From Rickettsiales bacterium (GTDB taxonomy: Bacteria > Pseudomonadota > Alphaproteobacteria > Rickettsiales > UBA8987): a DNA stretch of 64,000 nucleotides. Location of the stretch: the NCBI GenBank assembly GCA_020630095.1, contig JAHDCD010000001.1:133698-197697 (forward strand), in the 5' to 3' direction. Shown piece by piece: positions 20,573 through 58,013 of this stretch. The position numbers and the translations under genes were made by a program. The notes under the pieces were generated by a model that was given only the letters and a program-made list of their open reading frames with translations, ran no database searches and was not told the origin of the DNA. Within the stretch, counting starts at the first letter, position 1; every line of letters starts with the position of its first letter.

Positions 20573-20642
20573 GTCATTCCCGCGAAGGCGGGAATCTCAT
20601 AACAAGATTTTCAAGGGAGATTCCCGCCTTCGCGGGAATGAC
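20573..20642. repeat. RPE-like 70-nt palindromic element (intergenic, pyrH/serC)
   Basis: Perfect 24-bp arms gtcattcccgcgaaggcgggaatc / gattcccgccttcgcgggaatgac around a 22-nt loop. This is the source of the spurious SFPRRRES...RLRGNDN ORF 20436..20657. Confidence 0.85.
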
Positions 20643-25116: not shown

Positions 25117-25194
25117 GTAATAAGTAATATATAGTGAGATATACCTTTTGGTGTGGCAATAATATGGGTTATTAATGGCTTAATTTCAAGTGTG

Positions 25195-28017
25195 ATGAAT
25201 AAATTTTTTATAAAAATCCTTAGTTTAATTTGTGTGGTTTCTATTATTTTAACCACAAGCCCCGAGTTTGGAAGGGCGAACGAGTATTTTGACTACGATA
25301 CTGTTAGTAGAAATAATACTAATCCTAGGCTTATTCAAGCTGCGGCATATGGTAATATTGCAATTGTAGAGCAAGAGTTGTTGGCAGGTGCAAATGTTAA
25401 TATGATAGGTGTGTCGGGTACAACGGCATTAATGCAGGCTGCGTATAATAACGACTTTGAAATGACTGAGTTTTTAATTCAGTCGGGTGCTAGCCTTGAC
25501 CAACGTGATAGAAATCAACGTACGGCGGCGGAATATGCGGCGGCGGCTGACAATGTGCGTATGATAGAGCTTTTAGGTGCGTATGGTGCGGATATTGATA
25601 AATTTATAGTAGGAAAAACAGATTATGGCAGTTTATTATATACAACATTAGGTGTTGTAGCTGTTTTAGCGGCTGCGGGTGCTTTAGGTACAGATGGAGA
25701 GCCGGAAGATTCTACTGGCGGTGGTGGTACAACGCCAACTGTTCCTACGCCAGACCCAGGAACTGGCGGTTCAACGCCAACTGGGAATGTGGTTATTCCC
25801 GTTGCTCCGGAATCTGGAACGGCCTCAACATTTGAAGACACTGAATATGGAACTTCTGGTGCGCATGCCATTGTAAATGCCTCAGCAGCTTATGCGCGTG
25901 GTTATGATGGCTCTGTATTTACTCGTGATGCTGATGGTGCAAACCCTGTATTGGATGCATCTAAGGCTGTTAGGGTTGCGGTAATTGATGGTGGCATTGA
26001 TATTCATCATACAGATTTAGACGATAATTTAGCTACAACAGGCGCTAGGTGTTTAACATCGGGGTGCTTTGGTGATGGTGATGCTAGTGCATCCGAAGAT
26101 AATCATGGTACATTAGTTTCTTCATTAATTTTAGGTGAAGATAATAATTCCGGTGCAATGGGTATTGCGCCTGATGCAAAATTAATTCCTATCAATGCAA
26201 TTACGGCGGGTGGCTCAACTTCACGTGCGTTTGCTCATGCGGTGGGTAATGGCGCAGATATTATTAATAATAGTTGGGGTATTACAGATTTAGCTGGTAG
26301 AGAGGTGTATATTGCTGGCAATTCTACCGCAGCGGATGCTCAAGCCGCATTTAGTGGTGAAAATCAATTTAATGGTATTACGGATGGCGTTAACAATGGC
26401 TCTGTATTTGTATTTGCTACAGGTAATAGTGGTAATTCTGAACCGAATATAGTTGCTGGCTTACCTTTCTATTTTAATGGTGCGGCTAATAATGGTATCA
26501 ATACTTCAAATGTAGATTTACGTAATAATTGGATTGCAGTTGGTGCGTATAGCGCATCTGGTACGAATAATTTAGCATCGTTCTCTAATGCTTGCGGTGT
26601 GGCTAAAGATTGGTGTTTAGTTGCCCCTGGTTCTAGCTTAACGGGTGCGGCTAATGGTGGTGCAACTACTGGGTCATCGGCTACAACATCTGAAACTGGT
26701 ACAAGTTTTGCGGCGCCTGTAGTTTCTGGTGCATTGGCAGTTGTAATGGGTGCGTTCCCGCATTTATCAACTGAGCAGGCGGCTAGTATTTTGTTACAAA
26801 CGGCTACAGATTTAGGTCCGGCGGGTGTTGATGAATTTACGGGGCATGGTTTATTAAATTTAGATTCTGCAACTACACCAGGTGGTTCATTTGTTGTACC
26901 TACGGGCGGTAGTGCAGGTGTTTCACAATTTAGTGCAACGGGTACGGGGTTGGCATTTGGTAGAGCTTCAGCCAGTGCAGTTGGTTCGGAGAACAAGTTA
27001 ATGGTTATAGATTACCTTGGGCGTAATACATATATTGATGTGAATGATTTTACTTCATCTAGCAATGAGCGCTCAGAAAGCGTGAATGATTTATATAATA
27101 AATTCTCTAACAATCCTGATATTGAATTTAACGATGGTAAAACGGAATTTACATTAACAACGCGTTTACAGAATCGTGATGAGCTTGATAGATTTTCAGA
27201 GGAAGATTTACAAGGTTTCCAATATAAAGAGCAATTAAACAAGAAGACTAAGGTGGGTTTTGCCTATAACATGCCAGTTGATAATTCTGGCATTGGTTTG
27301 AATCAGTCTGATAATATACTTAGTTTAGCTGAGAAAGGGTATTCAGCTTCAATTGAAGGGCAGGGCTATAAGTTAGGTTTATTCAATGGGGAGTCACTTG
27401 ATAATGAAGATATTAAGTCTTCAGGTATTTATGTGGAGCAGGATATTGCTAAAAATATTTCATTCATTGGTGGTATTATTAATGAAGAGAATAGTTTTGT
27501 AGGTAATGCATCTTCTGGTGCATTGGAAGTTGGTGAGGATAATATTACTGCATTTTATGGTTTGAAAGGTGGTTATGATTATTCACCGAATCTTTCATTT
27601 AACGCGGAAGCTATTTTAGCTAATACGGAGCTTTCGGATGCTCCAACGAGTTCATTGGTTAATGGTGCTAGTGACATTATGTCGTCGTCATTCAAGCTTG
27701 GTGCGGCGTATAATGGTTTATTTAAAGCTAATGATAATTTCTCTTTAAACATTGCTCAGCCGTTAAAGGTAGAGCAGGGTACGCTTAATATTGCTACGCC
27801 AACATCTATTTCGGCTGATGGTTCTATTGGTTATGAGAATGATAATTTAAACTTAGCTTCAGATGCTAGGCAGGTGGATTTAGGTTTTGATTATAACCTA
27901 AACTTTGGTCTTGGTACTTCATTAAAAGCGGGTGCTATATTAAAAATGAATCCTAATCATTCATCGGATTACGAGAATGAATCGACAGGCTTCATAAGAT
28001 TGCAGCATAATTTCTAG
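25195..28017 (+). CDS. Ankyrin-repeat / subtilisin-like (S8) serine protease autotransporter
   Basis: Signal peptide MNKFFIKILSLICVVSIILT. About 3 ANK repeats (25321..25602), then a hydrophobic helix and a Gly/Thr/Pro linker. S8 triad contexts VAVIDGGID, HGTLVSS, GTSFAAPVVSG. C-terminal beta-barrel ending LQHNF. The ORF extends to a GTG at 25153. Confidence 0.8.
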   Translation: MNKFFIKILSLICVVSIILTTSPEFGRANEYFDYDTVSRNNTNPRLIQAAAYGNIAIVEQELLAGANVNMIGVSGTTALMQAAYNNDFEMTEFLIQSGASLDQRDRNQRTAAEYAAAADNVRMIELLGAYGADIDKFIVGKTDYGSLLYTTLGVVAVLAAAGALGTDGEPEDSTGGGGTTPTVPTPDPGTGGSTPTGNVVIPVAPESGTASTFEDTEYGTSGAHAIVNASAAYARGYDGSVFTRDADGANPVLDASKAVRVAVIDGGIDIHHTDLDDNLATTGARCLTSGCFGDGDASASEDNHGTLVSSLILGEDNNSGAMGIAPDAKLIPINAITAGGSTSRAFAHAVGNGADIINNSWGITDLAGREVYIAGNSTAADAQAAFSGENQFNGITDGVNNGSVFVFATGNSGNSEPNIVAGLPFYFNGAANNGINTSNVDLRNNWIAVGAYSASGTNNLASFSNACGVAKDWCLVAPGSSLTGAANGGATTGSSATTSETGTSFAAPVVSGALAVVMGAFPHLSTEQAASILLQTATDLGPAGVDEFTGHGLLNLDSATTPGGSFVVPTGGSAGVSQFSATGTGLAFGRASASAVGSENKLMVIDYLGRNTYIDVNDFTSSSNERSESVNDLYNKFSNNPDIEFNDGKTEFTLTTRLQNRDELDRFSEEDLQGFQYKEQLNKKTKVGFAYNMPVDNSGIGLNQSDNILSLAEKGYSASIEGQGYKLGLFNGESLDNEDIKSSGIYVEQDIAKNISFIGGIINEENSFVGNASSGALEVGEDNITAFYGLKGGYDYSPNLSFNAEAILANTELSDAPTSSLVNGASDIMSSSFKLGAAYNGLFKANDNFSLNIAQPLKVEQGTLNIATPTSISADGSIGYENDNLNLASDARQVDLGFDYNLNFGLGTSLKAGAILKMNPNHSSDYENESTGFIRLQHNF

Positions 28018-28030
28018 AATATTTTATAAA

Positions 28031-28223
28031 GCGAACGAATGTGAGTGGTGGGGGCAGAGGGCCTTAGCGGCTATGCCGCCATTTAATAATACAAGTACAT
28101 CTGTACCTAATACGAACGAATGTGAGTGGTAGGGGCAGAGGGCCTTAGCGGCTATGCCGCCATTTAATAATACAAGTACATCTGTACCTAATACGAACGA
28201 ATGTGAGTGGTAGGGGCAGAGGG
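28031..28223. repeat. 81-bp tandem repeat re-copying the 3' end of tRNA-Met
   Basis: Units begin at 28032, 28113 and 28194 (period 81). Each contains tggt(a/g)ggggcagaggg, the complement of the tRNA 3' end CCCTCTGCCCCTACCA, plus the same 65-nt spacer with hairpin gcggc-tat-gccgc. Confidence 0.85.
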
Positions 28224-28284
28224 ACTTGAACCCCCGACAAAGACGTTATGAGCGTCCTGCTCTAACCAACTGAGCTATGCCCCT
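28208..28284 (-). tRNA. tRNA-Met (anticodon CAT; elongator type, or possibly tRNA-Ile2)
   Basis: Manual cloverleaf: AGGGGCA-TA-GCTC-AGTTGGTTA-GAGC-A-GGACG-CTCATAA-CGTCT-TTGTC-GGGGG-TTCAAGT-CCCTC-TGCCCCT-A-CCA, 77 nt. Confidence 0.85.
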
Positions 28285-28341
28285 ACAGGTTAGATGTAAA
28301 GTTTATAATTAATTGTTTCTTATGCATCAAGTGTTTTAAAC

Positions 28342-49822: not shown

Positions 49823-50033
49823 AATGCGGGTAGTTGGCTGCCCCGCCGCGAGTAGCGGCAATTAAATAATCACTCAGCCATTTATACAATGAGTGTTATT
49901 TTATTTTTTAAATTATCTCTACGGAATAATTTATTAACGCGGGTAGTTGGCTGAGTGCCCCGCGCCGTACAGGCGCAATCGAATAGTTCGAGCACTCAGA
50001 CAACTTTTTGTTGTTTTATATTATCTTAAATGC
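49823..50033 (+). repeat. Two pseudo-copies of the tRNA-Ser 5' end with embedded GC hairpins
   Basis: aatgcgggtagttggctg at 49823 and aacgcgggtagttggctgagtg at 49936 copy the tRNA 5' flank plus positions 1-12 and 1-16. Each continues with cccc-hairpin-aa (gccgc gagta gcggc / gcgcc gtaca ggcgc). Confidence 0.8.
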
Positions 50034-50123
50034 GGGTAGTTGGCTGAGTGGTCGAAAGCACTAGTCTTGAAAACTAGCGAGGGGGCAACTCCTCCGGGGG
50101 TTCGAATCCCTCACTGCCCGCCA
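50034..50123 (+). tRNA. tRNA-Ser (anticodon TGA)
   Basis: GGGTAGT acceptor stem, D arm GCT/AGC, anticodon arm CTAGT-CTTGAAA-ACTAG, long variable arm GAGG...CCTC, T arm GGGGG-TTCGAAT-CCCTC, ACTGCCC-G-CCA. 90 nt. Confidence 0.9.
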
Positions 50124-50297
50124 TTTTCTCTTCCACTAACATCCTATAAAGTCCATTAAATCCTTGTATATCAACGGCTACATCATTTTCTCTGTCCATA
50201 GAGGTTTACTATTGTCCAGTGACATCTAGTATAAATGAGGGGTAAAATGGAGGGGTAAAATTACCCACTATATTTTTTACCCTTCATTTATTAGAAA

Positions 50298-50876
50298 ATG
50301 AAGCTAACGGACATTAAAATAAAATCTATTAAACCACCTATAGATAAAGCAAAGGAATCTTATGTAGATGGAGACGGCTTGCGTTTGATTGTAACTAACA
50401 AAGGCGGTAAATACTGGGAGTTTCGATATACCTACAACAACAAGCCAGACTCGCTTAATCTTGGTAAATATCCACATATTAGCCTTGCAGATGCACGAGA
50501 GAAGCGAAATGAGTTTAAAAAGCAGCTTGCTCACGGTGTAGACATTAAAGCCAATATTAGACAAGAGAAGCAATCTAAAGCTCTATCTGATGCTATTACC
50601 TTTGAAGTTATCGCTAGAGAGTGGCACGAGAAGAAACGCGAAGAATGGACAGAAAGGCACTCTAAATACGTTCTAAGACGCTTAGAAGCCGATTTATTCC
50701 CTGCTATTGGTTCAATGCCCATTAATACAATTACTACCGTAGACTTCTTAAACGCTCTTAGGGTAGTAGAAAAGCGAGGTGCATACGATATTACAAAGCG
50801 TATGCGTCAGACAGGTGGGCAGATATTCCGCTACGCTGTTGCAACTGGTAGAGCCGAGCGAGATAGCCAACTGTAA
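50298..50876 (+). pseudogene. Truncated P4/CP4-57-type tyrosine integrase (N-terminal arm-binding and core-binding part only)
   Basis: LTDIKIKSIKPP...DGDGLRLIVTNKGGKYWEFRY (DUF4102-like) and the SAM-like region up to ATGRAERD, then SQL-stop. The catalytic domain is absent. Lies 175 nt downstream of tRNA-Ser. Confidence 0.8.
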
Positions 50877-57507: not shown

Positions 57508-57604
57508 TATCTGCTGAGATGTTTTATGTTTATGTTGATGTTTGTGTGAGTTTTTTTCTTGAAACTCTAAACCCTTACAGCTAGAACCTAACATCTAACA
57601 GTTT

Positions 57605-57678
57605 GGCCCGGTAGCAAAGTGGTAATGCAGGGGATTGCAAATCCTCGATCGTCGGTTCGATTCCGTCCCGGGCCTCCA
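57605..57678 (+). tRNA. tRNA-Cys (anticodon GCA)
   Basis: GGCCCGG acceptor stem, 3-bp D stem, anticodon arm GGGGA-TTGCAAA-TCCTC, T arm GTCGG-TTCGATT-CCGTC (one U-U mismatch), CCGGGCC-T-CCA. 74 nt. Confidence 0.8.
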
Positions 57679-57952
57679 TAAGGATTAGTTTTCCTTTATA
57701 TATTTTATCAGATTTTCATTTGATTGCGACTGCTCGCCGCGGGGCGTCGGTTCGATTTCGTCCCGGGCCTCCATAAGGATTAGTTTTCCTTTATATATTT
57801 TATCAGATTTTCATTTGATTGCGACTGCTCGCCGCGGGGCGTCGGTTCGATTTCGTCCCGGGCCTCCATTTTCTTTCTTTTGAAGTTTTTAATATATCGG
57901 CTTGTATAGCAGTTGTTTCTAGTGGGCGTTGGTTTGAGTTCGTCCTGAGTCT
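57650..57952 (+). repeat. 95-bp tandem repeat re-copying the 3' end of tRNA-Cys
   Basis: cgtcggttcgatt(c/t)cgtcccgggcctcca occurs at 57650 (the real tRNA), 57745 and 57840, with an identical 66-nt spacer. A degenerate fourth copy lies at 57924-57952. Confidence 0.85.
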
Positions 57953-58013
57953 TTTAAGTTAATTTTTTAAGGGGTTATTTAGCTATTATGGCTACTTGCT
58001 GCGTCTAATGGTT

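Follow-up and report, generated by a model that had tools for sequence, protein, structure and literature searches.

Copies of its own 3′ end behind a Rickettsiales tRNA-Cys gene: probable attachment-site scars, locally amplified

Why should a tRNA-Cys gene be followed by a short series of copies of its own 3′ end? We addressed this question in a 64-kb window (the whole stretch of DNA that was analysed) from the genome of a low-GC alphaproteobacterium (37% GC), for which a sequence-only reading had reported that the last 29 nt of the gene recur at 57745 and 57840, and that the recurring copies are separated by identical spacers of 66 nt. Both observations hold, with the repeated block actually 30 nt long and the spacers, counted as 65 or 66 nt, 100% identical. 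Our answer, to which we assign a probability of roughly 0.6, is that integrative elements once inserted at the 3′ end of tRNA-Cys and were later almost entirely deleted, leaving the array behind as a series of attachment-site scars. The locus is made up of the following parts.

57605–57678, forward strand: tRNA-Cys(GCA) gene with encoded CCA (ARAGORN; Rfam RF00005, 61.6 bits).
57650–57679, forward strand: first copy of block T, inside the gene, with C at tRNA position 61 (repeat and pattern searches).
57680–57744, forward strand: first copy of spacer B, 65 nt, 100% identical to the second.
57722–57736 and again 57817–57831, forward strand: within B, relic of the tRNA anticodon loop and of the 3′ side of the anticodon stem (local alignment).
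57745–57774, forward strand: second copy, T′, an attP-like junction with C61 changed to T, X on its left and the left end of B on its right.
57775–57839, forward strand: second copy of spacer B, identical to the first.
57840–57869, forward strand: third copy, T′, attR-like, with X on its left and spacer C on its right.
57870–57926, forward strand: spacer C, 57 nt, not homologous to B (local alignment).
57927–57956, forward strand: fourth copy, T″, a decayed 3′ fragment matching T′ at 20/30 positions.

The block T (cgtcggttcgattccgtcccgggcctccat) comprises the last 29 nt of tRNA-Cys and one flanking base; it opens with the 5′ strand of the T stem and ends 1 nt past the CCA. A repeat search placed it at 57650, 57745 and 57840, with 29–30 of 30 positions matched across the three copies, and a pattern search returned three matches in the window against 0.00 in shuffles. 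Tandem Repeats Finder described the region 57650–57869 as 2.3 copies with a period of 95 and 99% matches. Both pseudo-copies share a C-to-T change at tRNA position 61 (attcc to atttc) that is absent from the gene, a substitution that the sequence-only reading had already noticed and that the repeat search recovered. Spacer B consists of an AT-rich left part of 45 nt (beginning aaggattagttttcc...) and a GC-rich right end of 20 nt, X (...gattgcgactgctcgccgcgggg), and a T-rich run, ttttctttctttt, lies directly 3′ of the third copy. The full layout is T-B-T′-B-T′-C-T″.

A sister array stands at a second tRNA gene of the window.

28208–28284, reverse strand: tRNA-Met(CAT) gene (ARAGORN).
28032–28284, reverse strand: the tRNA-Met locus as a whole, with layout T-B-T-B-T (repeat searches).
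28194–28223, 28113–28142 and 28032–28061, reverse strand: the three copies of Met T, 30 nt each.
28143–28193 and 28062–28112, reverse strand: the two copies of Met B, 51 nt each.

Here Tandem Repeats Finder reported a period of 81 and 2.4 copies (28032–28227, reverse strand), and T is made up of 16 nt of the tRNA end and 14 nt of flank, running from the T loop to the CCA plus 14 nt. The architecture is like that at tRNA-Cys and the spacer is unrelated to the Cys spacer, as had been claimed. Among the Met copies only the last differs, by one base.

These two arrays bear on an extremely improbable alternative, namely that the true Cys locus holds a single B+T′ unit or none and that the assembler looped through the repeat. 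The near-equal copy numbers of the two arrays (2.3 and 2.4) could be taken in its favour, but the first Cys T is one base off the later copies, the third T has a unique right flank, and the variants are distributed differently in the Met array, where the last copy alone deviates; moreover, the 95-bp period is shorter than typical reads and the arrays sit in a long contig of 245.7 kb.

How the repeats are counted is informative about their origin. The Cys array spans 2 × 95 + 30 nt and the Met array 2 × 81 + 30–34 nt, each with one more T than B; B therefore has the character of an insert between T repeats, and not of a segment that was simply doubled. A plain 95-nt tandem duplication would give whole copies ending in B, and would not stop after the third T. 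Simple tandem duplication was rejected for the Cys locus on this basis (2.3 copies ending exactly after T, followed by a non-homologous fourth spacer), although it does fit the final amplification step. The same count weighs on the main rival, a partial duplication without a mobile element, in which slippage or template switching at structured, heavily transcribed tRNA genes would have produced neutral variable-number repeats. We regard this as rather unlikely, since plain duplication gives whole copies and both arrays have the extra T; the identity of the two B copies and the placement of T repeats 95 nt apart, a geometry that favours slippage, speak for it.

The junctions point the same way. 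Taken in order, the flanks of the T copies are tRNA body and B, then X and B, then X and C (sequence reading), which are formally attL, attP-like and attR, as in two tandem integrated elements, with the tRNA-Cys gene acting as attL of the array. Features expected of attachment-site scars are found in that a direct repeat of the tRNA 3′ part reaches up to the 3′ end at both the Cys and the Met locus, and in that there is one more repeat than there are inserts, with attL, attP-like and attR junctions and the same layout in the Met array.

Spacer B itself carries a trace of tRNA sequence. The relic GATTGCGACTGCTCG matches the anticodon region of tRNA-Cys, GATTGCAAATCCTCG, at 12/15 positions and is colinear with T; the alignment has p=0.022 against shuffles before colinearity is allowed for. 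We rejected the idea that B is a decayed full 5′ half of the tRNA, as nothing but the anticodon-loop relic aligns. Identity jumps from 12/15 in the relic to 29/30 at the first base of T. Such a sharp boundary is not what uniform neutral decay of a duplicated tRNA segment would produce, and this counts against partial duplication without a mobile element; it fits an element-derived arm that abuts an identity block common to attP and attB.

The downstream end of the array adds a further, older layer. A fourth copy had been placed at 57924 by the sequence-only reading; the copy is real, and its start is instead at 57927, or at 57923 if the common upstream 'ggg' is counted. It exceeds the background, with 20/30 matches against 18/30 for the best non-tRNA 30-mer compared with the pseudo-copy on either strand of the whole 64-kb window. 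Seven of its 10 differences are GC-to-AT transitions, as would be expected of neutral decay in a genome of 37% GC. When spacer C was aligned locally with B, the score fell under the shuffle mean (p=0.83), and C was accordingly rejected as a diverged copy of B. Since C is not homologous to B while T″ is still recognisable, the fourth copy represents a separate, older event, and the non-homologous spacer is a second difficulty for duplication without an element.

We next consider what the spacers contain. Between the Cys repeats (65 and 57 nt) we found no ORF, no homolog and no integrase or mobile-element gene, and the Cys locus has no integrase or phage-like ORF. Spacer B had no further match, and spacer C no homolog, in the window, in viral contigs or in phage or plasmid records; the notion that either is a copy of another sequence in the window was dropped for want of matches. 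That B has no source in the local chromosome, as searched within the window, argues against partial duplication, which would in turn account for the lack of any remaining mobile-element sequence at the Cys and Met loci. For the attachment-site reading, the lack of an integrase, of mobile-element sequence and of B or C homologs at these two loci is a point against. No match turned up in viral contigs for either T block (Cys or Met), for the X-T junction or for the Met B-T junction, and a blastn search of phage and plasmid records hit nothing except the body of tRNA-Cys. In the window, no further decayed copies of the three tRNAs were found.

Several other classes of repeat were tried and set aside. 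A CRISPR-like array was rejected, as the two spacers are identical and there are no cas-like ORFs among the neighbouring genes. The identity of the spacers also excluded a transposon target duplication, and we know of no transposase that makes a 30-bp target duplication. A functional tRNA, tRNA-like or other structured RNA was discarded as well: ARAGORN and Rfam (E≤5) call the gene alone, and the fold of the unit has z=−1.5.

From this anatomy, which can be read directly, we infer both the mobile-element origin of B and C and the mechanism of duplication, in the following order. An early element would have integrated and pushed the original tRNA 3′ end downstream to what is now T″ at 57927, and would later have been deleted down to the 57-nt spacer C. 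A later element would then have integrated into the restored tRNA-Cys gene and been reduced to the 65 nt of B, which would retain the left end of the element beside the gene and its right arm, that is, the relic and the GC-rich stretch, beside the displaced T′. T′ would have gained the C-to-T change at tRNA position 61, and finally the 95-bp B+T′ unit would have been duplicated once, giving the order attL, B, attP-like junction, B, attR. The duplication may have proceeded by replication slippage or by unequal sister exchange between the two 30-nt repeats; alternatively, an integrase supplied in trans and acting on attL and attR of sister chromosomes could have given the same product. The identity of the two B copies places it after the reduction, and the presence of the C-to-T change in both pseudo-copies places it after that change as well. 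The allele pattern seen here is exactly what would result from slippage once T′ had been copied, or from unequal exchange on the 3′ side of the variant base. The proposal of the sequence-only reading that the array grew by duplicating the pseudo-unit, and not by copying the gene anew, is likewise supported by the identical B copies and by a substitution that the gene lacks.

The route in trans leads to another explanation, in which B+T is a miniature non-autonomous integrative element, comparable to cis-mobilizable elements, that is still recombined in trans by a tRNA-targeting integrase with its gene elsewhere in the genome, and whose copy number is actively changing. The architecture is exactly that of attL-E-attP-E-attR, the T repeats are intact (29–30/30), two tRNAs show the pattern with different spacers, and the spacers are small and uniform in size. 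However, a tyrosine recombinase could not excise a circle as small as 95 bp, which leaves sister-chromosome exchange as the only workable route; C61 to T falls within the core region, and the 64 kb hold no intact integrase, the sole one seen being truncated. We therefore judge an active miniature element to be very unlikely.

That truncated integrase lies beside the third tRNA gene of the window.

50034–50123: tRNA-Ser(TGA) gene.
50298–50876, forward strand: truncated P4-type tyrosine integrase, 192 aa (domain match).

The presence of integrase genes had been put forward as a check on the arrays, and one was found, degraded: a 192-aa N-terminal fragment of the P4 type whose ORF starts 175 nt downstream of tRNA-Ser, with the next gene about 80 nt after its end. 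The remnant covers positions 8–190 of the 413-position NCBIfam P4-type model, such that the Arm-DNA-binding and central domains are kept and the catalytic domain is lost. It shows directly that the genome was entered by tRNA-targeting elements, which are now undergoing deletion, and it supports reading the Cys array as attachment-site scars; correspondingly, it counts against duplication without a mobile element. The window retains no attR copy of the 3′ end of tRNA-Ser. The stretch separating tRNA-Ser from the integrase ORF holds 13-nt direct repeats (AAATGAGGGGTA) and an inverted repeat at 50231–50291, and these repeats may be arm-type binding sites.

The other side of tRNA-Ser is less easily accommodated. 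Upstream of the gene (49826–50033), its 5′ end recurs twice in direct orientation, from 49826 and from 49939; these copies extend from about −8 to +13/+17 with spacings of 113 and 93 nt, and their spacers are diverged but homologous to each other. An inverted copy of tRNA-Ser nt 5–23 lies at 49987–50005 (17/19 matches) and folds into a 14-bp stem around two small hairpins (GC-rich, TCGAA), followed by a T run (fold z=−3.9). This upstream array is unexplained by canonical integration at a tRNA 3′ end, which does not produce a 5′ array with an inverted copy, and it counts against the scar reading; with its inverted copy and 14-bp hairpin it looks like template switching, in favour of duplication without an element. 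A further point against scars is the size of the spacers, all five of which, across the window, are 50–100 nt long, a uniformity that would be odd if they were what random deletion had left of kilobase-sized elements.

The arrays of the window are confined to tRNA genes, which speaks for the scar reading. Outside protein-coding repeats, all exact local direct repeats of at least 15 nt in the 64-kb window lie at the three tRNAs, and all three carry short arrays of their own ends, tRNA-Ser at its 5′ end. Were this to be true genome-wide, three tRNAs of three in 64 kb, one of them with a 5′ array, would give the pattern a wider significance. A process in this lineage that builds arrays of tRNA terminal fragments with periods of 80–115 bp throughout the genome, at most tRNAs and at either end, appears quite unlikely to us; candidate processes would be miniature elements bounded by att sites and amplified in trans by an integrase, or a hotspot of recombination or template switching intrinsic to tRNAs.

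We also compared other lineages. A metagenome search with the Cys T block returned 34 loci, mostly of 25–34% GC with four at 54–61% GC, none of which (0/34) carries the Cys array; these loci belong to other lineages. Partial tRNA copies of at least 14 nt within 400 nt were found at none of 28 comparison tRNAs, a set made up mostly of tRNA-Cys loci on low-GC metagenome contigs with the same 3′ end. One metagenome locus (L099, Ga0209630_10019046, 1159–1277) has a degenerate 3′ fragment, GGCTTGACTCCCTCCCAGGCCTCCA, 20 nt behind tRNA-Cys, on a low-GC (30%), marine-looking contig with about 1.5 kb of small ORFs between the fragment and a gene beginning MDREPCIVG. This fragment is a comparable scar in an unrelated lineage, and such short scars therefore occur elsewhere too. 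The MDREPCIVG gene is unannotated and, we presume, thiolase-like. Among the 34 comparison loci, about 17 have an ORF starting MD[KR]xPCIVG within about 10–20 nt after tRNA-Cys.

Returning to the genomic setting, tRNA-Cys lies among ordinary genes of the chromosome. Its upstream neighbour is a gene for a peptidoglycan-binding protein with its own terminator; the other neighbours are a 101-aa ORF of unassigned function and, downstream, ZapE/AFG1, panC and pyrD. The closest relative of ZapE in a genome-contig search is only 43–44% identical. Converging on the tRNA-Met array is a gene (25153–28017) for a 954-aa protein with ankyrin repeats and a subtilase (S8) domain, the C-terminal part of which looks autotransporter-like. 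This protein, the 37% GC and the lack of relatives above 44% suggest an uncharacterised, host-associated alphaproteobacterial lineage. Two further observations concern short motifs. The 9-mer ACATCTAAC occurs at 57591–57599, 5 nt upstream of tRNA-Cys, and on the reverse strand at 28289–28297, 4 nt upstream of tRNA-Met, with ATCTTAA at a similar position upstream of tRNA-Ser; it may be a common promoter (−10-like) element of the tRNA genes here. Elsewhere, the palindromes ATTCCCGCGAAGGCGGGAAT (20576–20595) and ATTCCCGCCTTCGCGGGAAT (20620–20639) form an inverted pair in an 81-nt gap between two reverse-strand genes, for which shuffles give 0.02 such matches, and which we take to resemble the widespread ATTCCC...GGGAAT type of intergenic repeat.

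The Cys and Met arrays each occupy the entire space that separates the tRNA from the 3′ end of the convergent gene. This arrangement would suit an explanation in which the units are selected RNA or DNA signals that act in termination or processing, both for the tRNA transcript and for the convergent gene, with the GC-rich tRNA 3′ strand paired to the GC-rich X. Indeed, X and the 3′ part of T′ form a hairpin of about −18 kcal/mol, and a T-rich run follows the last unit; yet the fold energies are no better than those of shuffles (z −0.9 to −1.5), a terminator scan makes no call at the units, Rfam gives no match even at E≤5, and the T run begins 5 nt past the stem. Selected signals are thus highly improbable as an explanation, and the array itself is probably functionless; the most it may do is contribute to termination of the tRNA transcript through its last unit, where a GC-rich hairpin precedes a T run.

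If the arrays are attachment-site scars, they testify to two or more earlier integrations at tRNA-Cys in a genome otherwise rid of such elements, and they give the likely attB core of those elements. The Cys locus would then illustrate how an integrated element can be whittled down to about 50–65 bp while both of its attachment repeats persist and later promote a local duplication. For practical purposes, the arrays caution annotators about pseudo-tRNA fragments and are a likely copy-number marker for strain typing.

The anatomy has close counterparts in known systems. Partial tRNA genes are known attR sites (PMC9897764), and islands with P4 integrases at pheV are bounded by repeats of 19–23 bp that run from the T loop to the CCA, with an attR that often carries a T substitution (PMC11537424). 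As in these islands, the repeat at the Cys locus copies the tRNA 3′ end from the T arm to or past the CCA and the distal copy has a point substitution, and a remnant of the same type of integrase lies beside another tRNA of the window. In contrast to such tRNA islands, the DNA between the repeats measures 65 nt here (57 and 51 nt elsewhere) and not kilobases, the Cys array is without integrase or cargo, and the bounded unit has itself been tandemly duplicated.

A second counterpart is found in Dehalococcoides, where over a dozen repeats of the ssrA 3′ end downstream of ssrA mark tandem islands (PMC3146451). Such tandem islands form through serial integration or accretion, and some of them are without integrases and are cis-mobilizable; each ssrA repeat is preceded by an element-derived motif, and a fixed difference separates gene from repeats (PMC3146451). 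The Cys array shares with them the downstream series of several 3′-end direct repeats, a motif just upstream of the repeats that does not align with the gene, the fixed difference between gene and repeats, and units that in some cases lack an integrase. The Dehalococcoides units are kilobase-sized and differ from one another, whereas the Cys units are two identical 95-bp copies and therefore reflect a local duplication after the element had been reduced.

For that last step, slippage systems offer the third comparison. Work by Trinh and Sinden in 1993 (cited in PMC11537424) and by the Lovett laboratory is reported to have described duplication and deletion between short, close direct repeats through slippage or unequal sister exchange. 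Repeats of 30 nt set 95 nt apart are a classic substrate, and slippage after copying of T′ predicts a middle copy with the distal allele, as in the Cys array; these systems account for the amplification alone, and not for the origin of the first T-B-T′ structure. The sequence-only reading had set its finding against an explanation of the arrays by an att site; such an explanation is essentially our conclusion, and the finding is real and mostly ordinary. The array is most likely a set of attachment-site scars behind a tRNA gene, locally amplified, and these are a known and fairly ordinary type of genomic scar; what is distinctive here is that the remnants are extremely small (51–65 nt) and that the reduced unit was duplicated.
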